DNA from: a virus
Taxonomy: Duplodnaviria; Caudoviricetes
Strand: one strand, 5' to 3'
Virus record (IMG/VR): IMGVR_UViG_3300022602_000095
Location: 1-62,503 of that record
DNA length: 62,503 bases
Shown here: positions 24,765 to 62,503 of the stretch, piece by piece
Layout: every line of letters starts with the position of its first letter
How positions within the stretch are numbered: the first letter of the stretch is position 1
Translations under genes and position numbers: made by a program
Notes under the pieces: model-generated
Database searches by the model: none
What the model saw: the letters and a program-made list of their open reading frames with translations, nothing else
What the model was told of the DNA's origin: nothing

Positions 24765-25274
24765 TTAACCGCACTGTGCCACAAGACGTGCGTGACCGGC
24801 TGTTGTACGTACAGCGTTTGATGAATTCAATGATGTTTCACTAGGATTTGTTGAAACAAAGAAGAAGTTATCAAGCTTTGAATTCTGTGTAGTATCAAAA
24901 ACTATAGTTGATGAGTTTCCAGAGAGGAAAAGATTTGTTGTAAGAAGATTAACATTATCAATATCATTGCTTACAGGGAAGATAATATTAAGGGTTACGC
25001 TTGAAATAGAAGTATTAAAAGTTGGTGATACGATATTACCTACATAGTTAACTGTTGTTGGGATTACTGAAGCGGAGCTTAATGATATAACAGCGCTACT
25101 TACACCGGTTTGTAAAGTAAGATAAGCAACATCATCGGTAAGAGCATTGCCAAGAGTTGTATTACTTAAGTTAAGTAGAATAGTTGCGCTTGCGCCAGTT
25201 GTGGCTGAAGAGTATGTATAACTGTTAACAGAAGCAATAGCTGGTGTAACGTTTAAGAGGGATTCGTATGCCAT
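24765..25274 (-). CDS. Ser/Thr-rich virion protein (decoration-like), paralogue 2
   Basis: MAYESLLNVTP...LDNFFF...VRTTAGHARL; TAAATA late promoter; downstream of the MCP. Confidence 0.6.
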   Translation of the reverse strand: MAYESLLNVTPAIASVNSYTYSSATTGASATILLNLSNTTLGNALTDDVAYLTLQTGVSSAVISLSSASVIPTTVNYVGNIVSPTFNTSISSVTLNIIFPVSNDIDNVNLLTTNLFLSGNSSTIVFDTTQNSKLDNFFFVSTNPSETSLNSSNAVRTTAGHARLVAQCG

Positions 25275-25304: not shown

Positions 25305-25814
25305 TTATCCAAGATAAGCCTGTATTCTTGCATTACCACCTGTTGTACGAACTTGAAATTTAGGATCCGGACTACCTGTTAAAAAGAAAAAATTGTCAAG
25401 GTTTGTTGTTTTTGTCGGATCTAGTACAAATGTAGATGCATTAGCTGAAAGACTTATCGATGTATTGGAGAGCTCCCTTCCAGGAAAGTTAAGAGTAATT
25501 GTAGCACTAGTATTAGCTAAGTAAGTTGATGTTGCAATAGTACCTGGAAAAAGCTGATTTGTTGTTAAAATAGAAGGTGAACTTAATGTCATGTTAATAC
25601 TATTTGCCGGGCTGCCAGATGATGCACTTAATGCATAACCTGTAGAATCAGGGTCTGTATTAAGAGTAATCTTACAAACCATATCGCCATATTTGTTTCC
25701 GAGTGTTGTACCAGAGATGCTCAATAAAAATATTGAGTCAAACCCTGAAGCAATAGCTGTACTATAAATGGTTGAAAGTGTTGGTGTAACTGTTAAAGCT
25801 GATTCGTATGCCAT
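25305..25814 (-). CDS. Ser/Thr-rich virion protein (decoration-like), paralogue 1
   Basis: MAYESALTVTP...LDNFFF...VRTTGGNARI. Confidence 0.6.
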   Translation of the reverse strand: MAYESALTVTPTLSTIYSTAIASGFDSIFLLSISGTTLGNKYGDMVCKITLNTDPDSTGYALSASSGSPANSINMTLSSPSILTTNQLFPGTIATSTYLANTSATITLNFPGRELSNTSISLSANASTFVLDPTKTTNLDNFFFLTGSPDPKFQVRTTGGNARIQAYLG

Positions 25815-25850
25815 ATACATTTATTTGTTCAGAGCATAATATATAAAAGG

Positions 25851-25907: not shown

Positions 25908-27434
25908 TTAGAAGTAAACAGACTGAGTAGCAGGCGTAAATGCTGTACTGAGACCCTGAAGAATAATGACGTGGTAATAAAGATTCGCACCGAAGATGTT
26001 ATCTACAACGCCATAACGGGTTAATAGACCAACACGTGGTGAGAAATCGTTAGGACCGATGGTACGCTGAACCATTACAGGGATGTAAGGGCAGTAGATG
26101 ATACCAGTGTCATAGAACTCAGGCCCCTTGTAACCAAGGAGTGCGTAGTCAAGGCGTGTTGTACGAGTGCTATTGGCGGGGAAACCACCTTTACCACCGA
26201 AGTTACCTCCGGCGTTAGCCTCGAACTGTGCCTCTGTACGTGTGTCACGATAAACATTAAAACGACCGGCCAATGAGCCTACCTTTGCAACACCAACGGG
26301 CTGTGTATTTACTGAACCCTGTACTGGTACCCACTGGAATTCAGGGAGCATTTCTAGGATTGCGCAAACGCGAGGTGTACCAACTACGAAGTTGGCGGAA
26401 CCACGGCGGTTACGTACAGCGATACGATTAGCCTCAATGATGAGTCTCTGATAGAAGTCACGATTACGCTCAACGAGCCAACGACCATCGGCTGAAGCAG
26501 GATTCCAGATTGAGAAGCCTACGCCGTAACCGGCGTTAAGGGCTGTCTGAATCATACGGATGATCATTTCACGGTCGATTTCGGCCTGAAGCTCATATGA
26601 CATAGCATTTGTGAGCTCAGTATCGATATCGATACCGTTCATGTTCTTAAGATCCTGTTCAAGCTCAACGGACCAGCGAGCTGCAAGACGGCGTGTGCCG
26701 GCTTCAACTGCTGTCTTCTCAAAGCTGACGACGATCTGTGGGATGTTACTGCTTAACTCAAACTGGCTGAGTAATGCTGCAACGCCCTGATCTTCAACAG
26801 GAATGACGAAGGATGAACCTGCGCCTAAACCGGAGAGAGACTGTGAGCTCGCACCTGTGAAGGCTGTGTTGAGGTACTGATAACCTAATTCTGGGTTAGC
26901 TGAGAGGGCATTGTTTGCATTACCAGCATACTGTTGTGTGCTGGAAGCATCAAGGGAACCTGTCTGATAACCAAGTGAGGTTGGTTCGTACTTATAACGG
27001 AGTGCAAAAGCAAGACCGACTGGGCCACTCATTGGCTGAACACCAACAATCTCGTTTGTTATGAGTTCAGGGAATGTACGTCTGATCATCGGAATGAGGA
27101 TCTTAGGGAGACGAGCGTCACCGGAAGCATAAGCTGAATCGTTCTGTGATGGGAACTGATTGCCATATGAACCTGCGCCACCTGTTTCACCACCGAAAAC
27201 GCCACTACCTGCAACGCCGTAACCGCCAGCTGTGCCGCCGGATTGGTTTGAGGCCTCAAAGCACCACTTCTCTTGGTTCTCAAGGAGGATAGCGGTGTTT
27301 AAGCGTGTGTGGTCGTCTTCAATTGCGCGAACGTTGTTGGATGTGTAATCCAATACTGGACTCCACTTCTCAAGCAATGTACGCGCACTTCTCTCATCGA
27401 TGTAAGACTGTGAAGGACGGATTGATTTTGACAT
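25908..27434 (-). CDS. gp23: T4-like major capsid protein
   Basis: LLEKWSPVL, LLENQ, GVQPMSGPVGLAFALR, ELEQDLKNMNGID, EIDRE, GYKG..YD.G..YCPY. Confidence 0.97.
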   Translation of the reverse strand: MSKSIRPSQSYIDERSARTLLEKWSPVLDYTSNNVRAIEDDHTRLNTAILLENQEKWCFEASNQSGGTAGGYGVAGSGVFGGETGGAGSYGNQFPSQNDSAYASGDARLPKILIPMIRRTFPELITNEIVGVQPMSGPVGLAFALRYKYEPTSLGYQTGSLDASSTQQYAGNANNALSANPELGYQYLNTAFTGASSQSLSGLGAGSSFVIPVEDQGVAALLSQFELSSNIPQIVVSFEKTAVEAGTRRLAARWSVELEQDLKNMNGIDIDTELTNAMSYELQAEIDREMIIRMIQTALNAGYGVGFSIWNPASADGRWLVERNRDFYQRLIIEANRIAVRNRRGSANFVVGTPRVCAILEMLPEFQWVPVQGSVNTQPVGVAKVGSLAGRFNVYRDTRTEAQFEANAGGNFGGKGGFPANSTRTTRLDYALLGYKGPEFYDTGIIYCPYIPVMVQRTIGPNDFSPRVGLLTRYGVVDNIFGANLYYHVIILQGLSTAFTPATQSVYF

Positions 27435-27530: not shown

Positions 27531-28409
27531 TTAGTACTTATGAAGCTCGTTCAAGTAAAGATTGAATGCACGATCCTCACTTGCTGGAGTCTCAATAGAC
27601 TCCTCGATTACTGGGCGATCAACAGATGTAGTAACTGTTTCTTCCCTAGCTTCGGTAACAAGATTGTTGAGCCGCTCTTCTTCGGATTTGTCAAAAAGAC
27701 CAAGGGTATAATCAAAGTTTTCTGCGATAAATTTTGCGGACTTTGAACCCAACATCTTTCTCATGTAGGTCTTTCTGTCCTCATCAAGAGAGGAAATATT
27801 CTTCTCGAGAATCAAACTCGCATTGACTGTGTTTAGTTGCTCGGTCAATGTTGCAACCCGCTTATTAGCGGCTTCAAGCTGCTTGGCAGCTTCATCAATT
27901 CTTGTTTTACCGTCAACGACGGCATCACGAATACTCTCTTGGGCGAGAGCCATATCAACGGAAAGCATGTTGCGCATTTCATTAAGAACTGCTGCTGCAC
28001 GCTTATTGTTGACGGCCTCTTGAATTTCAGCTGCTGGGAGCTTCTCTTCAAGATAAAGTTCAAGGTAATTACTTACCTGGTCAATCATTTGATTTTTAAA
28101 ATCTGCAGCTTCTGTTGTAAGAGCTGTTTCATACTTCTCTACGATCTGCTTAAGCTTCTTTACACGATCAGCATCAAGAGCTGCAACAACTTTGTTGAGC
28201 TTGGCAACGTGATCAGCATCAATAGCTTCGATAAGAGTTTCAAGCTTACTAGCATAATCCTCATCCTGTTCATTGAGAGCTTTTTCAACGTGAAGTTTTA
28301 CTTTAGCGTCGACAGAAGCTTCATAGGCTGTTTCAATTTCCTTAAGAACGTCTTCAGTAAGAATGTCCTTAGTTGCTGCCTTGAGGAGTTCGGAGATATT
28401 ATTTTGCAT
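27531..28409 (-). CDS. gp22: prohead core scaffold protein
   Basis: Coiled-coil, V.NYLE motif, located between gp21 and gp23. Confidence 0.85.
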   Translation of the reverse strand: MQNNISELLKAATKDILTEDVLKEIETAYEASVDAKVKLHVEKALNEQDEDYASKLETLIEAIDADHVAKLNKVVAALDADRVKKLKQIVEKYETALTTEAADFKNQMIDQVSNYLELYLEEKLPAAEIQEAVNNKRAAAVLNEMRNMLSVDMALAQESIRDAVVDGKTRIDEAAKQLEAANKRVATLTEQLNTVNASLILEKNISSLDEDRKTYMRKMLGSKSAKFIAENFDYTLGLFDKSEEERLNNLVTEAREETVTTSVDRPVIEESIETPASEDRAFNLYLNELHKY

Positions 28410-28773: not shown

Positions 28774-29436
28774 CTAGAGTTTAGATAAAAACGACAAGAT
28801 TTGCTCTTTTAGGAAAAAGGCAACATCGTGTTTGGGTAAACCGCGAATGCTCTTTTCAAAAGATTCATATACTTCTTCAAGTTTGCCGTCCATACCAAGA
28901 ACATATTGTTTTGATTCAAGAATACCGTTAACAAAAGCTTTAGGGCAACTCGGATCAGCAACACAATCAACAGCAATAAGACGCATTTCGTTTACACGAT
29001 TAATACCATCAGACTGCTCTTCAAGCTGACCAAGGGCACGACTTGACATACCAACCTTAACACCGTCGTTAATAAGTGATCGTACAATCTGACCAACAGG
29101 TGTTGATAATACAATTGATTCACCAATAATAATATTACCATCCTTACGTAAGGAAGTAACCATATGACAGGCTCTTTCAAGATCAACTTCTGCTGAAGCA
29201 GGATGATTTAATTCACCTAACGCGCGCTTTGGTATAACCATTTCCTGAACGTAACGATTAACTTCACGCTCCATATCAGACTCTGTATAGATTCTTTTGT
29301 TCTTATTAACTTCTTCGCAAGCCATATAAGGTCCACGAATTTTCATGATTGACTGGCCCTTTATATTTTTTTGCTCTTCGATATATTCGAACTGCTCTTC
29401 TGAGGCCGGTGTTTCAACTAGTAATCTAAGTGACAT
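28774..29436 (-). CDS. gp21: prohead protease
   Basis: NKNKRIY, ALGELNHP, GMSSRALG, DCVADPS...AFVNGILE. Confidence 0.95.
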   Translation of the reverse strand: MSLRLLVETPASEEQFEYIEEQKNIKGQSIMKIRGPYMACEEVNKNKRIYTESDMEREVNRYVQEMVIPKRALGELNHPASAEVDLERACHMVTSLRKDGNIIIGESIVLSTPVGQIVRSLINDGVKVGMSSRALGQLEEQSDGINRVNEMRLIAVDCVADPSCPKAFVNGILESKQYVLGMDGKLEEVYESFEKSIRGLPKHDVAFFLKEQILSFLSKL

Positions 29437-51823: not shown

Positions 51824-52214
51824 GAGATTTTAGCTCTTCAAGTGCTCGTAATACAGCATCGTTAGCTTGATGTATATCATCACTTGATTGATCTTTAATT
51901 ATAGGTGTAAAGTTAGTATTCACTTTACTATCTGGTATAAGGTTATGTTCAGCAGCTACTTTAGATAGTGTTGCTTGGAGCTGATGTATAAGAGGATCAG
52001 GCTCTCTTTCAATGAGAGAGCTTGGATTTAAATTTGTAGATAATCTTGTTACAGCAACACTACCAACGGGTTTAACCTGGGTATTATAAATGTCACCAAG
52101 CTTTTGATTGTTATTAACAATTGAATCAATAAATTCAGGAGCAAATTTACCTTGTATTTTAAAATGATCCGATATTTCACCGCCATACTGCTGTTGCAGT
52201 GTTTCAGCGTTCAT
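51810..52214 (-). CDS. hypothetical protein
   Basis: ORF overlapping the queD stop. Confidence 0.6.
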   Translation of the reverse strand: MNAETLQQQYGGEISDHFKIQGKFAPEFIDSIVNNNQKLGDIYNTQVKPVGSVAVTRLSTNLNPSSLIEREPDPLIHQLQATLSKVAAEHNLIPDSKVNTNFTPIIKDQSSDDIHQANDAVLRALEELKSLNEI

Positions 52215-52897
52215 CGTCCCCAGCTAGTACCGCCAAAGAAATTTGAATAACCTGATGTTACAGGGTTACGTAATGGTACCGGGCCATTTTTTGGCTTGTC
52301 AGGTGATGACGGTGCTGGAGGAGTTTCAATAGGATATAAAATTTGTTCAGTAGCTTGATGTTGTGGTTCAGTATTGACTGCATCAATAGGTGTAGCTTCT
52401 ATAGGTGTTGTATATGTCGATTGAATCGGTGTAGTATAACTTGTTGAATATGTAACCGGACGCTGTTCGCCGTAAATAGCAGAATTTGCTTCATGTTCAA
52501 ATACTTCAACTTTTTCAACCCAACACCGATCACCATAATTATTTTTAAGCCATGTTGTAGCTGCTTTAAAGCAAAATTCAGCAGTCTTTTCAATACCTAC
52601 AGAATCCATAATGCGAAGGTCACATCCTCCCATATTGTGTAAGTGTTGAAATATTTCAAGCAATGGATCATCACTCGCAACACATAATGTGTGATCAAAT
52701 TGATGTTGTAGTTCAGCCTTTAATGTTTTAAGACTAGCGAAGTCAACAACCCAGTTTTTTTCATCAAGTGATGATGCTGAAAAATAAAATTTAGCTAATA
52801 ATTGATACCCGTGAATTTTTGAACAATGTGAAGTAGCTCTCCATTGTCTAAAGGCACAAGATCCAAGTTCGATAAGTTTAGTACTCTGATAACTCAT
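52211..52897 (-). CDS. queD: 6-carboxy-5,6,7,8-tetrahydropterin synthase with Pro/Thr-rich C-terminal extension
   Basis: SHCSKIHGY, WVVDF, FDH, E...NSA. Confidence 0.9.
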   Translation of the reverse strand: MSYQSTKLIELGSCAFRQWRATSHCSKIHGYQLLAKFYFSASSLDEKNWVVDFASLKTLKAELQHQFDHTLCVASDDPLLEIFQHLHNMGGCDLRIMDSVGIEKTAEFCFKAATTWLKNNYGDRCWVEKVEVFEHEANSAIYGEQRPVTYSTSYTTPIQSTYTTPIEATPIDAVNTEPQHQATEQILYPIETPPAPSSPDKPKNGPVPLRNPVTSGYSNFFGGTSWGR

Positions 52898-53225: not shown

Positions 53226-54068
53226 TTATCTTCTTCTATTTACTGGTGATTTACTATGCAATGGATGTGATGGTAAATTCATTTCTGTTTCATCTTTCTT
53301 CGTTGGCGGCTTAACGGGTACACCAGCCTTTGTCTGTGTAGCACCTTTTGTTATAGGTACAGCCGGTATCGTAGCTTTAGAAGGTTGAGTTGAAGGTTGT
53401 GGTATTTGTGTAGTTACTGCAGGTGTTTGTTGGGTAGTAGGCGTTACTGTATTACCTTGTTGTAGATCTATATTATCCGGTTCATTATACACATCTTGAG
53501 CTATCCTATTGAGATCAGAGCTTCTAATCGATGGCATTCCTTTTTTTATTATCGTATCAATTTCTTCAACCGTCTTTGCATCTTTTATCTTTGATTTAAC
53601 AGAAGGGATCAATTTTTGTCCATATCTATCATTAAGTTTTTCTCTGTACTTACTTACAAAAACTTCCTGTTCTTTTTCTCTTTCGTACGATTGACCGTAT
53701 TGACGAATAGTATTACTTGCTTTTTGAGGTGCACCAGTAATTGCTTTACCGGTACTTGCCACTGCACCCCCAACATTTGAAACAGCGCCACCGACTTTAT
53801 TCGCTAAAGCTGCACCTTGCGTACCGCCAAGGGCACCGTATACTTTACCAGCACCTTGAATCACCTTACCGGCTAATTGACCTAATTTACCTAATCCTTG
53901 AATAGTTCGACCTGGTACTTGAGCTACACCCTTAATAGCTCCTTTAGCCATTTTTTTACCTATAGGCTTTTTTGCAGCTGCATTACCGGCACGTTTTGCA
54001 GCATTAACATAATCACTTAATGTACCTTCGTTGAGTACGAGCTCAGCTAAATCGTTAAAATTATTCAT
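53226..54068 (-). CDS. Gly/Ala/Lys-rich putative internal head protein
   Basis: MNNFNDLAELVLNEG capsid-targeting-like start; amphipathic GA repeats. Confidence 0.6.
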   Translation of the reverse strand: MNNFNDLAELVLNEGTLSDYVNAAKRAGNAAAKKPIGKKMAKGAIKGVAQVPGRTIQGLGKLGQLAGKVIQGAGKVYGALGGTQGAALANKVGGAVSNVGGAVASTGKAITGAPQKASNTIRQYGQSYEREKEQEVFVSKYREKLNDRYGQKLIPSVKSKIKDAKTVEEIDTIIKKGMPSIRSSDLNRIAQDVYNEPDNIDLQQGNTVTPTTQQTPAVTTQIPQPSTQPSKATIPAVPITKGATQTKAGVPVKPPTKKDETEMNLPSHPLHSKSPVNRRR

Positions 54069-55601: not shown

Positions 55602-55850
55602 TTATTTTTTCTTCCAGGAAATTCTTTTTGAACTCTTTTTCTTGTTCTTACTACTGTTACACATTGCCATTGTTGGGCGACATGCTGGGTACCCGCGTCT
55701 CTTCTCACCTTTCTGTCTACCACAAGGTTTACCCGTCTTGCAATCTACCCATCCCTTACCATGATTACGTGCAAACCAGCCATGGAGACCTTCTTTCTTT
55801 TCCTTCTCAAAGCCTTCTAATATAAGATTGACTAGGTTATCGAATTTCAT
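55602..55850 (-). CDS. small Cys-containing basic protein
   Basis: GL.GWF...GWVDC.TG.PCGR...YPACRP. Confidence 0.7.
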   Translation of the reverse strand: MKFDNLVNLILEGFEKEKKEGLHGWFARNHGKGWVDCKTGKPCGRQKGEKRRGYPACRPTMAMCNSSKNKKKSSKRISWKKK

Positions 55851-55999
55851 TTCTTTTTCCAGATCTTACCTTGGCGACATTTTACTACAGCACCGGACTT
55901 ATAAGCTGATGTTTTACTACCGTATACTGCATCAGCTCTACGTAAACAACGATCACGCTTAACCTTTTTTTCGGTAAGAAATTGCTTGAAAGTTAGCAT
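55847..55999 (-). CDS. 50-aa basic peptide (not in ORF track)
   Basis: MLTFKQFLTEKKVKRDRCLRRADAVYGSKTSAYKSGAVVKCRQGKIWKKK; overlaps both neighbours. Confidence 0.7.
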   Translation of the reverse strand: MLTFKQFLTEKKVKRDRCLRRADAVYGSKTSAYKSGAVVKCRQGKIWKKK

Positions 56000-56304
56000 T
56001 TCCATCTCCTTCTTGCTGCGCAACCACGTGTATTTTTACCTGCACAACCACCAGCTGGTATCCAGGCTCTACTTCTAGCACAAAAACTCTTTCTACGCTT
56101 TGAAGCCTTTGATCCCTTCTTAACTTTACCTGTTACAGGTGCTTTAAGATGAGATCCAGTCGCACGATTATATTTCGCTCTACCTTTAGCTGTTAAGCCA
56201 CCACCACGACTTACAGGTAATTTTTCACCTCGTTTAATTGAAAGGCTGAGTCCATTCTTTTCTTCCAATACTTCAATGAAGCGCGATTCAAACAAACTTT
56301 GCAT
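55993..56304 (-). CDS. small Cys-containing basic protein (DUF6321-like)
   Basis: GGLTAKGRAKYNR.TG..LKAPV...RRKSFCAR...RRWKC. Confidence 0.75.
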   Translation of the reverse strand: MQSLFESRFIEVLEEKNGLSLSIKRGEKLPVSRGGGLTAKGRAKYNRATGSHLKAPVTGKVKKGSKASKRRKSFCARSRAWIPAGGCAGKNTRGCAARRRWKC

Positions 56305-56958: not shown

Positions 56959-57576
56959 TTATTTCAAATTCTTTCTTATATCATCAAAAAGAACTCTTGC
57001 CTCATCTTCAGGCATCCCTGTAGGTAAAATCTTTTTAAACGCTGTAAAATCTCCTAGTTTAGCCAAATTACGTGCTTTGGTAGCGCTTATTCCCGACGCA
57101 TCATCACTATCTGGATCACGGTTCTCACCAGCTACAGCTGTCTTAAAGCTTGTTAAATTTAAACGCTTTTCAGGATCTGGATTATTAATATATTTGTTAA
57201 ATAAAGCATCATACTCAGCTGCACGGTCACTACCACAAACAAGTGTTAAATCTTGATAACCACTATCAATTAAGAATTGCACAGCGTCAAAGATTGTTTT
57301 AATTTTATCCGAATCAATAAAATTAACTTGCGGCAATGTAGCATTCAAAGCTTTCATCTTATCTGAATACGGAATAGGGTTCTTTTTTGCATCTTGAGTC
57401 TTTGTAACAACTACAAAGGTATCTGCTTTCTCCTGTCTTCCTACTTCAACAGCTTTTGCTATTAATAATTCATGTCCAAGAGTAGGTGGATTCATTCTAC
57501 CAAAAACAAATACAGCTTTTGTATTTGTCGGCTTAATATCAGAAATAATCTTCTCAACAAGTGTTTTAAAGCTCAT
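56959..57576 (-). CDS. HIGH-family cytidylyl/nucleotidyltransferase
   Basis: FGRMNPPTLGH, KNP, GSDR, ISAT..R; start moved to MSFKTLVE. Confidence 0.85.
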   Translation of the reverse strand: MSFKTLVEKIISDIKPTNTKAVFVFGRMNPPTLGHELLIAKAVEVGRQEKADTFVVVTKTQDAKKNPIPYSDKMKALNATLPQVNFIDSDKIKTIFDAVQFLIDSGYQDLTLVCGSDRAAEYDALFNKYINNPDPEKRLNLTSFKTAVAGENRDPDSDDASGISATKARNLAKLGDFTAFKKILPTGMPEDEARVLFDDIRKNLK

Positions 57577-57577
57577 A

Positions 57578-58693
57578 TTATGATCCAAATTTTTCTGCAC
57601 CTGCCTCACCACCACCAACACCATATGGTGCACCTACAAAAATTGTTTTATTATTTGTTATGGGATCTGGGTATCCTGAATAATCATCATCTCCTAATAA
57701 TGCATTAGTACTTGTCATGCCTTCAAGTTCTTCATCATCTTCTCTTTCTTGAGCTCCAAATTTCGAGCTCATGAAATGCGGACTATTTACCTTAAACATT
57801 AGATCGCCAGCCTTAATAACATATCCCTCAATATCACCAAGAAGACCTTCAGTCTTAAGAAGATTATTAACAATCTTTGTATACATCTGTTTTTGTATAG
57901 GTAAAAGCTTTTCATTAATCTTAGATTCAAGTTCTTTTCTACGCTGAACAAGCTTGTTGCGACCAGGTCCACCAATAGCAATTTGATCTTTTAACTCCGT
58001 TAGTTCCTGTTCTATCTTAGTTAAATTACTAAGAGCCTTCTGTGCATTTAGTAATTCAGGTCTAAGATCAATTGAATGAAAAACATTAACGTTAGGTAAA
58101 ATAAATTTTACCTCCTTATCATTAATAGATGTTAGTTTCTTGATGATCGAAGCGGCATTAGTACCCTCTTCTCCTTGTACATTAATAACAATAAATGTCG
58201 ACCAAGTACCTAATCTATCCTTATTATATTGTGCAACAACAAAACTTACTTTTCCGGAATTAGGATCTGCTTCGAGTGCATTAGGTGAATAGAGCCATTC
58301 AAGTTGAACAGTAACATTATGCTTACCGATAATTGGACTAATTAAATGCTTAATGCGTTCAAAGCTATTCATAAACGCCTGGCGAGCTGGTGGATATTTA
58401 ATAGCAGTTATAAAATCTTCAGGTTTATATACTTTACCTGAATAGCTTGAGCGTACAAAAAATCCATTCTCGTCATTGCCAACCTTAAGAGCCATACCGT
58501 CAACTTTCTCTGTTACAGTTGAATTCTCAGGTGTAATCATTCCCTTGTTTTGCTGTAAATAGCTAACAAAGCGTTTAAAGTTATCTATACTCATTGAGTA
58601 TAACTCCGGCTTATTTTGGGAATAAAGATGTTGGATACCTACTCTATCACCCTCTTTTGGTGCTTCTGTTAAAAATTGTTTAAATGTAATCAT
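57578..58693 (-). CDS. ATP-dependent ligase-like nucleotidyltransferase
   Basis: I.HL, TEKVDG (KxDG), EGYVI..FK motifs; MITFKQFLTE start. Confidence 0.65.
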   Translation of the reverse strand: MITFKQFLTEAPKEGDRVGIQHLYSQNKPELYSMSIDNFKRFVSYLQQNKGMITPENSTVTEKVDGMALKVGNDENGFFVRSSYSGKVYKPEDFITAIKYPPARQAFMNSFERIKHLISPIIGKHNVTVQLEWLYSPNALEADPNSGKVSFVVAQYNKDRLGTWSTFIVINVQGEEGTNAASIIKKLTSINDKEVKFILPNVNVFHSIDLRPELLNAQKALSNLTKIEQELTELKDQIAIGGPGRNKLVQRRKELESKINEKLLPIQKQMYTKIVNNLLKTEGLLGDIEGYVIKAGDLMFKVNSPHFMSSKFGAQEREDDEELEGMTSTNALLGDDDYSGYPDPITNNKTIFVGAPYGVGGGEAGAEKFGS

Positions 58694-59385
58694 AAAAATG
58701 TATGTCCTGTTGTTACTTCTGCGTCTTTTACAATTTCCTTCGCCTGAGCAGAGCCATATATTTGTACAAGCTTCTTAGTAATTGTCTGTATATTATTTAA
58801 ATCTTTAGCAGTAGAATTTTTATCAAAAATTGCTTTTGCAATTATATCAGGATCTCTAGAGATGAGTTGTTTTGTTTCTCTACTGAATAGACCGTTTGTC
58901 GATAACGTAAGTCCTTTATGTTTAGCTATAGCTGATAAAAGGATATTTCTATCCCTACCCTTAAAGGGAACTTGTTCATTAGCTGCATAAAAGAATTTAA
59001 GATACTCAGGATCGTCATGGAACATAAAATCTACCTGTACAAAATTACCTGTCATCTTACCTTCTTTATTCCAAACTGGCGATAAGAAGTGTACTGATAC
59101 TCCTGATTTTTTTGTGCCTATAATATCGTTATTATTTTTTTTCCAGAATTCTTGCAATTTACTCTCCAAGGTTGCCTTACTAATAGTTTTTGCATCAACA
59201 ACAAGATCTATATCGCCAGAATCAGCAGCTCTGCCTGTTGTACCAAGCATATTATTTAAAAGTGGAAGACCGGTAATTCTCTCAAGATGCCGTACTGTGG
59301 GTACGACGTCTTCACGAGATATACGGCCTGTATCTGTAAATACATTGCCACCTTCTTTTAAAATATATGACTTAAAGGTTAACAT
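58690..59385 (-). CDS. Pol-beta-superfamily nucleotidyltransferase
   Basis: EGGNVF, LGTTG...SGDIDL, VQVDFM, KG..RNILL. Confidence 0.75.
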   Translation of the reverse strand: MLTFKSYILKEGGNVFTDTGRISREDVVPTVRHLERITGLPLLNNMLGTTGRAADSGDIDLVVDAKTISKATLESKLQEFWKKNNNDIIGTKKSGVSVHFLSPVWNKEGKMTGNFVQVDFMFHDDPEYLKFFYAANEQVPFKGRDRNILLSAIAKHKGLTLSTNGLFSRETKQLISRDPDIIAKAIFDKNSTAKDLNNIQTITKKLVQIYGSAQAKEIVKDAEVTTGHTFL

Positions 59386-59824
59386 CAGTCTTTAAGTAAG
59401 GATCTTGCTTATTCATGGCCGCAAGTATCTGCTTATATTTGTTTATAAAGTTACCCGTATTAATACTATTGATAAACTTCTTAACATTAATATTATCCAA
59501 TCTTTCAGGATTATCAGCATACATTTCGTTTTGTTTAATAGCAGCTTCTAAGGCTGTCTGCATTGGAAATGCATTTTCTGCTGTAATATCTGTTCTATAA
59601 ATTTCATCCAAAGCACCTGGTGGAAAAGTCATTGCAGCTGCTTTTGATAAAAGATTAACAAGCCCTACATAACCCTCAGGAGCAACTTGCGCTACGGTAT
59701 TATCGGTAGGTGCTGGTGCATTAGGATCAGGCGCTGTAGCATCAGGCGCTGCAGCATCAGCTGATGTGTCATCTGCTTCATTAAGAACTGACCATTCCTT
59801 GTTAATTTTATCGATAAATTTCAT
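59372..59824 (-). CDS. hypothetical late protein
   Basis: TAAATA-N6-ATG; VLNEA followed by an Ala/Pro linker. Confidence 0.6.
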   Translation of the reverse strand: MKFIDKINKEWSVLNEADDTSADAAAPDATAPDPNAPAPTDNTVAQVAPEGYVGLVNLLSKAAAMTFPPGALDEIYRTDITAENAFPMQTALEAAIKQNEMYADNPERLDNINVKKFINSINTGNFINKYKQILAAMNKQDPYLKTDVNL

Positions 59825-59840: not shown

Positions 59841-60416
59841 CTATACATAGATAAGTTGCTTTGTTTTGAGTTGTTCAAAGTACTTCTCACTTAGAAATGT
59901 TAATTCATTACGTTTAACGAAATTCTTAACTCTTGCAAATGTATAATATGATCTAATAAAGCTTTTCTCCCAAGCAAAATTACGAATACGCTCAATGAGT
60001 TCTACAACATCACCGTTACGTTTTGTATATAAATGATTGATTAAATTAAATTCAATATTTTCATAACCATATATGCTTATTGGTAGAAGTTTAGCCAGCT
60101 GTAATGCAGCTCTATCAACGTATCTTTCAATTTGTTGTTTGTCAAAATATTGTATGATACGAGTATTTGAAAGATCTAATTGTATAGATTTAAGAATAAC
60201 AATACGTTCTTTTGATTTTAAAGAGAGCAAATATTCACAAGTACCGTGAAAGATGTGATGATATAGAAGTTTCTTAATATCTTTAGTGATTTTCTTCGAT
60301 GTAAGAAGCTGATATTTTGCAAGATCATTAATAAAATCAATCTCTATAGTGCTAAAGATTGACTCAAAACTTATTAATCTAAGATTAAACTGATTAAATG
60401 TACAACTCTCAATCAC
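59841..60416 (-). CDS. hypothetical protein
   Basis: GTG start 6 nt after TATAAT. Confidence 0.6.
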   Translation of the reverse strand: MIESCTFNQFNLRLISFESIFSTIEIDFINDLAKYQLLTSKKITKDIKKLLYHHIFHGTCEYLLSLKSKERIVILKSIQLDLSNTRIIQYFDKQQIERYVDRAALQLAKLLPISIYGYENIEFNLINHLYTKRNGDVVELIERIRNFAWEKSFIRSYYTFARVKNFVKRNELTFLSEKYFEQLKTKQLIYV

Positions 60417-60431
60417 TAATTCATTATAACA

Positions 60432-60857
60432 CTATAAATTATAATTTGCAAGCTCTTGTTTTGGAGCTTTTCCTATTCTTACATTACATATACCATTATA
60501 ATAATCATCTCTTAAAAGTACATCTTCACCTAGCTGTTCTTTTATTTCATAATAAGCTAACGCCCATTTAGAGTTACAAGTACGTAGAATCTTAAAAATA
60601 AATTTATCTTTACCGTGCTTTATTATATCCGCATTTAATTCATTAGATGAACTGGTATATGTCTTCCAATCAGATTCTTTGTGTTCAATACGACTATTTT
60701 TCCTACCCTTAAGAGGCTTGCGTTTTATACGGCTTGTACATTGCTTCTTACCGATGTATTTCTTATTATTAACAGTATTAACAATCAAATAAATAAAACC
60801 AAAGGTATCTTCTGTTATAACAACACCTTCATTCAATAACCAATGACCACTATCCAT
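60432..60857 (-). CDS. GIY-YIG-like nuclease (conserved T4-like family)
   Basis: GFIYLI.N..N.KKYIGKK, ESDWK.Y.SS, YYN. Confidence 0.8.
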   Translation of the reverse strand: MDSGHWLLNEGVVITEDTFGFIYLIVNTVNNKKYIGKKQCTSRIKRKPLKGRKNSRIEHKESDWKTYTSSSNELNADIIKHGKDKFIFKILRTCNSKWALAYYEIKEQLGEDVLLRDDYYNGICNVRIGKAPKQELANYNL

Positions 60858-60868
60858 GTAGATAGTTA

Positions 60869-61114
60869 TTACACACCTGATAAACGTCTACGTTTAATAG
60901 GTACTTTAACTTTTTTCTTTCTACCTGTCGCCTTAGCACCTAATATAGCAGGCATTCTTGCGTCCCCAGGTGCATAAGCATTATCATTTTGTGAAGGAAA
61001 TTGATTTCCATAATTACCTGATGTTACAGGTCCTGTTACCGCGCCAGCGCCTCCTGCAATGTTGGCAGCCATTTCAGCTAAAAGTCTATCTACAAGTGTA
61101 TTGAAATTGCTCAT
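60869..61114 (-). CDS. small protein containing a copy of the gp23 N-arm motif
   Basis: YGNQFPSQNDNAYAPGDARMPAIL vs gp23 YGNQFPSQNDSAYASGDARLPKIL. Confidence 0.75.
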   Translation of the reverse strand: MSNFNTLVDRLLAEMAANIAGGAGAVTGPVTSGNYGNQFPSQNDNAYAPGDARMPAILGAKATGRKKKVKVPIKRRRLSGV

Positions 61115-61144
61115 TGATTTTTTAAGTACCTTATACTATATTTA

Positions 61145-61540
61145 ATGTTAATGCTTGAGGATTATATCAAAGAATTAGAGGAAGATCTTAAGATTAATGA
61201 ATTAAATCTTAAGGACTATCAGCTTCGTTTACCTGCTATTAAACACAAATGGACAGGTAGAATGATTCGTCTTAAGTCTCTCATCAATAATCTTAAGAAG
61301 CAAAAAGATAAAATTAAATCTGATATTATGTCAGAGATTGATCATACTAGTGCTGTTAAATTAACTCAGCCTGTTATAGCTGCTACTGCTGATAAGCACA
61401 GTAAAATACAGGATATTAATAAACAAATTCAAGATGCTGAGCTAATTGTTGAACTTTTAGAACGCTCTGAAAAGACGTTAAGTAGTTGCTCATATGATAT
61501 ATCAAATATCATAAAGATTATGCAGCTTGAAACGACATGA
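61145..61540 (+). CDS. uvsY: recombination mediator
   Basis: DLKI...L...P..KHKW, coiled coil, YDI.NII; directly upstream of uvsW. Confidence 0.75.
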   Translation: MLMLEDYIKELEEDLKINELNLKDYQLRLPAIKHKWTGRMIRLKSLINNLKKQKDKIKSDIMSEIDHTSAVKLTQPVIAATADKHSKIQDINKQIQDAELIVELLERSEKTLSSCSYDISNIIKIMQLETT

Positions 61541-62503
61541 TAAAGTTTGATTACGACGAGAAAAAAAAGCTTGGTATTATCTCAGGAGAGATGTTTGATG
61601 AGATACGTGAGCATTTCTCAGTAAAAAATGAAGCAGCACATTTTATGCGTCGCCGAGGGCGCTTTATGCCTTCAAGAACTTACGCTATCACACCGACAGG
61701 AAGGTTTGAACCCTGTCTATATACAGAAATAAAGAAATTCTTAACTAGTGTACAGTACGTTGGTGAGATTGAATACAGTAAAGGTGTATTTGAGCAAGTT
61801 GTACCAGCAAGACATGGTTGGCATCAACAGTTAGATTTTAAAAATGAGATTTTACCTCTTAAACTTGAATTAAGAGACTACCAGGAAGAGATTGTAAAAA
61901 CATGTTTGTTTAACGGTAGAGGTACAATAATTTTAGCTACAGCAGGGGGTAAGACTCTTACATCAGCATCATTGATATCAAAAGTATACCAGCTTTATAT
62001 GTCTCCATATAATAAACAAAATTTTAAATGTCTGTTTATTGTACCTGATCGAGGACTTGCGTCTCAGACTTATCAAGATTTTATTGATTACGGTGTACCA
62101 TTTAGTGTATCAAAATGGACAGGTGACGATGATTTAGATTTATCATCAAATGTAATTGTTTCAAATCTTGGTATCTTACAAAGCAAAAATAGTAACTTAG
62201 AATGGCTTGCAGATATTGACCTGCTTATTGTTGATGAATGCTTGCGTTCAAATACACTCATAACAACTGATAAGGGATACAAAAAAATACAAGATATTAA
62301 AGTTGGGGATATAGTTAAGTCATATAACTGTATTACACACAAGGAAGAGTTAAAACCCGTAATCAACACATGGAAGAATTTGATTAAAAGTAATTCTTAT
62401 ACATATTTTTTAGAGATAGAGCTTGAAAATGGGTCTCTTATACAAGTTACTCCAAATCATAAAATATATACAAGCCGCGGCATGGTTAGAGCTGATGAGC
62501 TCA
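61537..62503 (+). CDS. uvsW: UvsW-like SF2 helicase (partial, runs off window), intein-containing
   Basis: Hand-translated: LRDYQ, ATAGGKT, IVP..L..Q, LIVDE; no stop before the window end. Confidence 0.9.
   Translation, partial: MIKFDYDEKKKLGIISGEMFDEIREHFSVKNEAAHFMRRRGRFMPSRTYAITPTGRFEPCLYTEIKKFLTSVQYVGEIEYSKGVFEQVVPARHGWHQQLDFKNEILPLKLELRDYQEEIVKTCLFNGRGTIILATAGGKTLTSASLISKVYQLYMSPYNKQNFKCLFIVPDRGLASQTYQDFIDYGVPFSVSKWTGDDDLDLSSNVIVSNLGILQSKNSNLEWLADIDLLIVDECLRSNTLITTDKGYKKIQDIKVGDIVKSYNCITHKEELKPVINTWKNLIKSNSYTYFLEIELENGSLIQVTPNHKIYTSRGMVRADEL
62239..62503 (+). mobile_element. intein (N-terminal part) inserted in the helicase DExH motif
   Basis: DE|CLRSNTLITTDKG.KKIQDIKVGD.V block A; IQVTPNHKIYT block B. 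Confidence 0.9.

Follow-up and report, generated by a model that had tools for sequence, protein, structure and literature searches.

Why should a phage encode one segment of its major capsid protein (MCP) a second time, in a small gene of its own? The question is raised by a 62.5-kb virus record from IMG/VR (IMGVR_UViG_3300022602_000095; completeness estimate 29%), analysed here over all of its 62,503 nucleotides and referred to as the window. Its source is a distant T4-like phage, the MCP of which is at most 32.8% identical to those of cultured phages, with the best matches among cyanomyophages. The gene in question lies at 60869..61114 on the minus strand (stop codon included) and encodes 81 residues from an ATG start, as the open reading frame (ORF) list and translation establish and as an earlier note on this DNA had described; that note took the product for a mimic of the N-terminal arm of the MCP. 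We give an even chance to the explanation that this product is an internal or core protein of the phage head, processed by the prohead protease, whose MCP-like segment shares the partner of the MCP arm. Throughout, database proteins of the family are labelled P (P0001 being the protein of the window), related IMG/VR genomes G, and IMG/VR loci L.

A separate gene for the arm of the capsid protein

The MCP of the window (508 residues; 25908..27434, minus strand) is a member of the Gp23 family, with matches to PF07068 over residues 110-482 (E 5.4e-86), to phrog_138 (E 3.5e-81) and to T4 gp23 chains in the PDB (E 4.5e-30). When the window was searched in six frames with the start of the motif common to the two proteins, it was present at two places only, the small ORF and the MCP, 33.8 kb apart. 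The core comprises residues Y35-L58 of the small protein (nt 60941-61012, with Y35 at nt 61012) and Y90-L113 of the MCP (nt 27096-27167, with Y90 at nt 27167), both on the minus strand; the earlier note had counted 20 identities in these 24 residues at a distance of some 34 kb, and both figures hold. By BLASTP, residues 32-58 align with MCP residues 87-113 with 21 identities in 27 (E 2e-13, for a single comparison), and the small protein, used as the query against the entire 62.5-kb record, retrieved only itself and the MCP site (E 8.7e-11).

The codons have diverged, again as noted earlier: over the 24-residue stretch 48 of 72 nucleotides are identical, and the same codon is used at eight of the 20 identical residues. 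Six further genome pairs share a codon at 4-9 of about 20 identical residues, and G+C content at third codon positions (GC3) is 0.20 in the small gene vs 0.45 in that of the MCP. This codon divergence indicates that the likeness is kept at the protein level; recent gene conversion between the copies is ruled out by the shared-codon counts of the seven pairs.

Comparison of profiles widened the match. With a 122-row alignment of the family set against 59 MCPs, hhalign placed residues 11-81 of the small protein on MCP residues 58-125 (27060..27263, minus strand) at a probability of 99.1% (E 9.2e-19), the match running in the MCP from the Glu of ..CFE to ..IPMIRRTFPELI. Behind its leader, considered below, the small protein consists of a Gly-rich linker and the MCP-like core (residues 15-58; 60941..61072, minus strand; aligned by hhalign with MCP 58-113), followed by a Lys/Arg-rich tract and then VPIKRR.. 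(residues 59-81; 60872..60940, minus strand), which parallels IPMIRRTFPEL of the MCP. The hhalign alignment treats the Lys-rich tract as inserted sequence that separates ...PKIL from IPMIRR... of the MCP, and places PIKRR on PMIRR. An MCP-like ending, RRTFPET or RRTLPET, is kept in P0106, P0168 and P0175, and in P0106 the basic tract is shifted to the C-terminus. Judged by these alignments, the likeness to the MCP extends beyond the 24-residue motif. The copy of the N-arm proposed in the earlier note is therefore upheld and is wider than claimed, and the leader resembling a capsid-targeting sequence (CTS), the Gly-rich linker and the Lys/Arg tail that it listed are all present.

Phmmer aligned MCP residues 18-155 with T4 gp23 residues 7-139, by which the copied segment would correspond roughly to T4 gp23 residues 60-106; the Gly-rich part of this correspondence is of low confidence and residue equivalence is approximate. 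In T4, gp23* residues 66-105 are disordered before the head expands and could not be resolved; the model begins at L106, which is directed towards the interior. The disordered region was probably in contact with the scaffolding core, becomes the extended N-arm and the N-fist on expansion, and contains the sites of the head-length mutations A66D, A94V and G97S (PMC9546572). The N-fist, of 25 residues, contacts four subunits, and the arms, at first inside the shell, come to lie on its outer surface (PMC9958956). On this correspondence the small protein is a free copy of the mobile segment of the MCP only. It resembles the N-fist and N-arm of T4 gp23* (66 to about 105) in its homologous position within the MCP, its Gly-rich and flexible character and its beginning at the maturation cleavage site; it differs in being the product of a second, separate gene, with its own leader, a poly-Lys insertion and a motif that T4 lacks.

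The homology ends at MCP residue 125, and PF07068 starts at residue 110; the HK97-fold body, with its P, A and I domains, has no counterpart in the small protein. Because it has no such body, we regard it as a paralogue of the arm only and not as a member of the Gp23 family. P0001 had no match in Pfam at E <= 1 and none in PHROGs, and neither collection offered a match to a decoration family. In the ESM Atlas it fell into unnamed viral clusters only, with a model (pLDDT 0.30) that predicts disorder. A decoration protein of the Soc type would be folded and lack a propeptide, whereas here the protein is predicted to be disordered and has a propeptide-like leader. Prediction of a three-chain complex of the MCP body (residues 126-508), a scaffold-like protein and the small protein, each entered with an alignment, returned a score of 0.00 and a mark of 0.32, by a three-chain design that is unlike the calibration of the tool and says nothing for or against binding; a fold prediction of the MCP from a 54-row alignment was unusable (mean pLDDT 42.7). 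As part of the explanation that we favour, we propose that the small gene arose by partial duplication of the capsid gene. In a literature search made mostly at the level of titles, no paper was seen to describe a second, separate gene for an MCP arm.

A large and conserved family

A word-indexed search yielded 63 candidates, among them 61 small proteins of 66-96 residues with E <= 0.01; five members (P0008, P0009, P0013, P0024 and P0037) are listed on contigs of 209-219 kb. A profile of 40 members, run against 1.84 billion representative proteins, matched 179 clusters at E <= 1e-3 and 38 at E <= 1e-10, nearly all of the 179 being 60-100 residues in length and matched over the whole of it. The core GNQFPSQND.AYAPGDAR.P is almost invariant across 40 near relatives, and comparison with seven relatives gave dN/dS values of 0.07-0.19 at dS of 0.8-2.4, where synonymous sites are saturated. 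The small gene is real, conserved and under purifying selection, and the genes for MCP arms form a large, conserved and previously undescribed family.

Interrogation of 50,697 deposited phage records, by blastn with the locus and by tblastn with P0001, P0168 and P0106, gave no real match. A hidden Markov model (HMM) of the family found nothing in nine cultured T4-like genomes (T4, KVP40, HTVC008M and six cyanophage-type records), and as a control recovered both the small gene and the MCP in their own window. The extended motif GNQFPSQND.AYAPGDARLPK is absent from T4 gp23 and from six cyanomyophage MCPs; these motif-less MCPs and the nine genomes without the gene indicate that the two features co-occur at the level of the clade. 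In a related-locus search that started from a 7-row alignment, many matches were MCP N-termini and not small genes.

Some members are longer. Twenty of these were scanned, and DUF5661 was found in seven and GNAT in one (P0095, P0122, P0127, P0151, P0157, P0159, P0179 and P0162 making up this set), on either side of the module; the remaining 12 had no Pfam match. In L235 and L255 the module is fused, again at either end, to domains that belong to no family. These counts may include over-extended gene calls; fusion at either end is as expected of a portable, head-associated module.

Part of the region 60300-61700 occurs in seven DNA runs, at no more than 0.30 of sampled words, and in no RNA run. 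Three of the seven, from three studies and labelled as lake-water or freshwater metagenomes, hold 0.23-0.30 of the words and offer a lead to the habitat only.

Covariation with the cognate capsid protein

The earlier note had suggested asking whether the motif varies together with gp23 across relatives. Seventeen records contained both genes and were compared over the aligned stretch from Glu to PKIL. Across all 17, the small protein is 52.6% identical to its cognate MCP vs 48.6% to other MCPs (permutation p 0.0005), and within 14 near-clade genomes the values are 55.7% and 54.2% (p 0.013), by a permutation that ignores relatedness. Small proteins of the near clade are 54% identical to near-clade MCPs and 37% to the MCPs of G033 and G034; those of G033 and G034, a second clade of two genomes only, are 42% identical to MCPs of their own clade and 36% to those of the near clade. 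The form of the motif changes in parallel, being GNQFPSQND in both genes of the near clade and (T/A)D(S/T)YA in both genes of G033 and G034. At the G/N position before the Asp of GDAR, scored by hand from printed sequences with G006 left unscored, the two genes agree in 11 of 13 genomes (three N/N, eight G/G) and disagree in G017 and G024.

These comparisons suggest, by a weak but significant signal, that the small protein tracks its cognate MCP. The covariation foreseen in the note is thus present at a small scale. The kind of homologue that it named as counter-evidence, one lacking the motif, also occurs in part of the family: in the tracking set in G006, G022 and G030, and elsewhere in P0033 and P0035-P0037, in which the GDAR..P part is replaced.

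A T4-type leader and its presumed processing

The first 14 residues (MSNFNTLVDRLLAE; 61073..61114, minus strand) have the form of a capsid-targeting propeptide with an L-x-E end. Among the 122 rows of the alignment, F4 is kept in 114, position 7 is L, I, F or Y in 91, the P3 residue before the Glu is L, M or I in 107, and P1 is Glu in 93; counted without alignment, [LI]xE falls within residues 6-26 in 103 of the 122. The protein of the window has LLAE at residues 11-14, its sole (L/I)xE site, so that none lies in the mature part. In T4, propeptides of 10-19 residues direct the internal proteins to the core, the protease gp21 cuts after L/I-X-E, and residues 4 and 7 of the CTS serve targeting and residues 8 and 10 processing (PMC9026906). 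At the level of sequence, the small protein shows targeting residues 4 and 7 in a propeptide of this length, and an L/I-X-E propeptide end in a phage that encodes a gp21-type protease.

The resemblance reaches individual residues. T4 IPII and IPIII start MKTYQEFIAE, and IPI starts MKTFKEF with ..ITE at residue 19; P0101, P0205, P0077 and P0184 start MKTFK(E/D/Q)(F/Y), some members have MKTFKEFIQE and similar starts, and the leader of P0101 has seven of ten residues in common with those of IPII and IPIII. What would remain after cleavage, residues 15-81, is a segment of 67 residues with a net charge of +9 (family median +8 in 115 members). With T4 IPI, IPII and IPIII (and Alt) the small protein thus shares a propeptide with an aromatic residue at 4, a hydrophobic one at 7 and an L/I-x-E end, together with a basic mature part, a gene outside the head block and a protease of the gp21 type. 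The T4 internal proteins have only the leader in common and vary from phage to phage (PMC3012670); the small protein, unlike them, is conserved, stands at a fixed position and has a copy of the MCP arm as its mature part. Beyond the leader the sequences are unrelated, the family HMM finding nothing in T4. By its sequence features the small protein would qualify as an internal protein of the T4 kind, with packaging into the virion and cleavage to be expected of it.

The presumed processing enzyme is a prohead protease of the gp21 type at 28774..29436 (minus strand; phrog_207, head maturation protease, E 1.2e-51). It belongs to a head block that comprises a portal gene, head-completion genes, the protease, a 118-residue ORF, a 292-residue scaffold-like ORF and the MCP. 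The scaffold-like protein (27531..28409, minus strand), so designated from its sequence and its position between protease and MCP, has no match in PHROGs and 49 homologues at the same position in relatives. It contains 16 (L/I)xE sites in its 292 residues, as expected if the protease has T4-like specificity.

Leaders of similar appearance were recognised by eye in five other ORFs of the window (53226-54068, 55602-55850, 55993-56304, 58690-59385 and 59372-59824, all on the minus strand). Each has an aromatic residue near position 4 and then ..L-x-E within the first 11-16 residues, and their mature parts are unrelated and mostly without a family. In the first of them (53226-54068) the leader is kept in two orthologues, and TATAAATA stands at -19. 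We regard these five as candidate internal head proteins.

Genomic setting and expression signals

The surroundings of the gene were tabulated for 58 distinct family genes from IMG/VR loci, 54 of which have enough downstream flank. In all 58 a uvsY-like homologue lies upstream in divergent orientation; in the window it occupies 61145..61540 on the plus strand (phrog_231, E 9.2e-10; Pfam UvsY, E 0.0025, under the Pfam cut-off). Downstream of the small gene by 11 nt, and probably co-transcribed with it, is a gene for a SegE-like GIY-YIG protein of 141 residues (60432..60857, minus strand; PF19835, E 3.6e-30), a homologue of which follows on the same strand in 47 of the 54 loci. The protein consists of the catalytic domain only, without the DNA-binding tail, and is 25% identical there to T4 SegE, which has 205 residues. 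Homing endonucleases are seldom linked so constantly, which suggests that this nuclease has been domesticated. The SegE-like neighbour was also seen in L151, L233 and L255; its occurrence spans deep divergence and is not sporadic.

Late promoters carry the motif TATAAATA in T4 and CTAAATA in cyanophages. A similar motif, TTAAATA, is situated at 61139..61145 (minus strand), 25-31 nt before the start of the small gene, and is overlapped by the plus-strand start codon of uvsY. Within 45 nt upstream, [ACT]TAAATA was present in 53 of the 58 genes, compared with 2.6% of random 45-mers from the same loci, and ATAAATA was present in 23 of the 58. The head genes of the window have NATAAATA-type motifs 12-20 nt upstream. 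On this evidence the motif before the small gene may act as a late promoter.

The order of genes invites comparison with T4. In the window an RNA-ligase-like gene, three ORFs, the SegE-like gene and the small gene face uvsY and a uvsW-like helicase gene; in T4 the order is rnlB, 24.2, 24.3, hoc and inh, facing segE and uvsW and then uvsY. By map order the small gene takes the position of T4 hoc/inh. T4 Inh, a protease inhibitor and minor head protein, and Hoc share with it this place between RNA ligase and segE/uvsW/uvsY, and Inh has a Y-I-A-E element at its start as well; Inh is unlike the small protein in its length (226 residues), its acidic first half and a mature part without sequence likeness.

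Cytidylyltransferase-like, RNA-ligase-like and QueD-like genes lie near the locus, at 56959-58693 and 52211-52897 on the minus strand. The match of the RNA-ligase-like gene (E 4e-5) is under the Pfam cut-off and supports the positional comparison with T4 rnlB. The uvsW-like helicase gene (ResIII/DEAD; 61537-62502, plus strand) is interrupted after its D-E-C motif by a Hint- or intein-like start, CLRSNTLITTDKG.., with several matches to Hint-clan Pfam families, all of them sub-cut-off (E 3.5e-6 to 8e-5); the end of the window cuts this element.

A proposed internal head protein and its alternatives

The course of events that we envisage is as follows. The small gene would be expressed late, and the 14-residue leader would bring its product into the scaffolding core of the prohead in the manner of a T4 CTS. 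The gp21-type protease would then cleave after Glu14, to leave a 67-residue, basic (+9) and probably unfolded peptide. One part of this peptide would be the MCP segment between the maturation site and the ordered body, the equivalent of the N-fist and N-arm; the other, the poly-Lys tract inserted in that segment, would lie as a basic tract on packaged DNA. The MCP sequence would have been kept because the copied segment meets the partner of the MCP arm, either the scaffold core or subunits of the shell. We infer packaging, cleavage, the partner and the contact with DNA from several features taken together: homology to MCP residues 58-125 and no further, approximately the segment that in T4 probably touches the core before expansion; a T4-type leader, accompanied by an encoded gp21-type protease and a scaffold-like protein rich in (L/I)xE; other ORFs of the window with similar leaders and unrelated mature parts; and the basic mature part, the late-type motif (53/58), the hoc/inh-like position, the tracking of clades and the fusions.

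A number of points weigh against this explanation. Packaging and cleavage are read from sequence, and the searches found no cultured relative. In T4 the CTS by itself suffices for targeting (PMC9026906), which leaves the copied arm in need of a separate role, and the N-fists come to rest on the outside of the expanded shell (PMC9958956), a surface that a free internal peptide may not reach. In three of the 17 tracked genomes (G006, G022 and G030) most of the motif is gone from the small protein, although the MCP keeps it. The constancy of the SegE-like partner (47/54) could signify a role in DNA metabolism. The small gene has TTAAATA and not the ATAAATA of head genes, and a perfect extended -10, TGATATAAT, stands at -55; late transcription is accordingly likely and not certain, and early or middle transcription possible. 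Finally, a strict form of the leader pattern occurred at three of 108 ORF starts in the window vs one of 266 internal Met positions (p 0.07), which makes the shared leader suggestive and not proven, part of the resemblance being looser matches made by eye.

The roles put forward in the earlier note, namely filling of the groove that binds the N-arm, tethering of DNA and decoying of a defence protein, stand as proposals, as does binding to capsid proteins. The first of them has its closest counterpart in an alternative that we hold to be unlikely without setting it aside. Here the peptide would be bound in the shell and would fill the position of a missing MCP N-fist and N-arm, for example beside the portal, as a structural brace in trans that may pin DNA through its Lys tract. 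The small protein ends where the ordered body of the MCP would begin (L106 being the first ordered residue in T4), its core is as conserved as in the MCP and tracks the cognate clade, and the Lys tract forms a loop between two MCP-like pieces or is terminal, as in P0106. The contacts of the T4 N-fist with four subunits would make the segment a binding element in itself, but in T4 the arms move outside, where a Lys tract has no DNA (PMC9958956). The motif has been lost in some lineages, and GC3 (0.20 vs 0.45) is without the codon bias of the MCP, although copy number is unreadable from GC3. A search with PF07068 found no gp24-like vertex paralogue in five related records (G002, G004, G006, G013 and G022, one 91% and one 88% complete by estimate), each of which has one Gp23-family gene. 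MCP arms are therefore probably present at the vertices themselves, and an obvious explanation for vacant arm sites there is weakened.

Slightly less likely again is that the small protein acts as a capsid arm in trans, the cleaved peptide taking the expansion route of the MCP arm so that its copy of N-fist and arm would lock into the lattice, with the poly-Lys loop and the RR-x-x-P base on the inner face with the DNA. If true, it would be a rivet joining the packaged genome to the shell, or a filler at symmetry-mismatched arm sites of the portal, and the first capsid protein arm to be encoded again as a separate, protease-matured gene product.

We think it distinctly improbable that the protein is a regulator of core assembly like T4 gp67 and gp68, which would compete or pair with the N-terminal segment of the MCP on the scaffold, affect the geometry of the shell or the timing of arm release, and then be cut and mostly expelled. 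T4 gp67 has 80 residues, close to the 81 found here, and gp67 and gp68 are acidic. Both are core proteins cut by gp21 (PMC9958956, PMC9026906), as we suppose of the small protein, and a shared sequence would give competition for one site. The N-terminal part of the MCP probably touches the scaffold, and head-length mutations fall within it (PMC9546572). However, gp67 and gp68 are degraded to peptides, whereas the small protein has one cleavage site and a mature part without internal (L/I)xE; its strongly basic tract suggests a peptide that stays with DNA. Since the family HMM finds nothing in T4, it is not a homologue of gp67 or gp68, and the several internal gp21 sites that would go with membership of that class are lacking.

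A very low probability attaches to a decoy, injected or cytoplasmic, that would titrate a capsid-sensing host defence with a harmless copy of its epitope. Direct sensing of the capsid by a defence system is reportedly the subject of one published study. The Gol region, which we take to be residues 93-122 of T4 gp23, falls within the same conserved N-terminal stretch of the MCP, and the small protein reaches into the beginning of the most conserved MCP block; Gol as so placed maps mostly to ELITNEIVGVQPM.., absent from the small protein, which carries at most its first few residues. There is precedent for the principle in Lit, activated by the 29-residue Gol region bound to EF-Tu (PMC3014915), and in the T4 internal proteins, which are anti-defence proteins (PMC3012670). 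Anti-defence genes are usually patchy, however, whereas the position of the small gene is fixed in 58 of 58 loci across deep divergence.

Lower still do we rate a partnership with the SegE-like nuclease, to which the small protein would supply DNA binding or control. Adjacency on the same strand in 47 of 54 loci (at 11 nt in the window), a nuclease of 141 residues reduced to its catalytic domain beside the 205 of T4 SegE, and neighbours that are recombination genes would suit such a role; in seven of the 54 loci the small gene stands without the nuclease, and MCP homology, head-targeting leader and late-type motif would go unexplained. A dead remnant of duplication or a chance ORF, as might be supposed of a small, low-complexity sequence with predicted disorder (pLDDT 0.30) beside a homing-endonuclease-like gene, is refuted by dN/dS of 0.07-0.19 at saturated dS, by the 179 clusters, and by the fixed position and conserved start, leader and core.

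Other features of the window

Directly downstream of the MCP gene are two paralogous ORFs rich in Ser, Thr and Asn, at 24765-25274 (169 residues) and 25305-25820 (171 residues) on the minus strand. Neither has a match in PHROGs, and the pair could encode decoration proteins. Between 1400 and 9000, on the plus strand, a repeated sigma-70-like element stands before many short ORFs; it reads AAGCTTG.AA..TTCC.. and is followed by a -10 of the TATACT/CATAAT type about 8 nt before the ATG. These elements are probably the early promoters of the phage.

Implications

How proteins are chosen for the scaffolding core, and what partner the N-terminal segment of the MCP has before expansion, are treated as open questions in the T4 literature (PMC9958956, PMC9546572). 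The small protein, if it is the internal head protein that we favour, consists of little beyond a leader, a cleavage site and an MCP segment, and would offer a handle on the partner of that segment and on what the N-fist and arm recognise. It is kept throughout a large clade without cultured members. Its fusions to DUF5661 and GNAT may represent a second, MCP-derived route by which cargo is loaded into heads. More generally, the family indicates that a duplicated portion of a capsid gene can persist as a gene in its own right, under a constraint that it shares with its parent.

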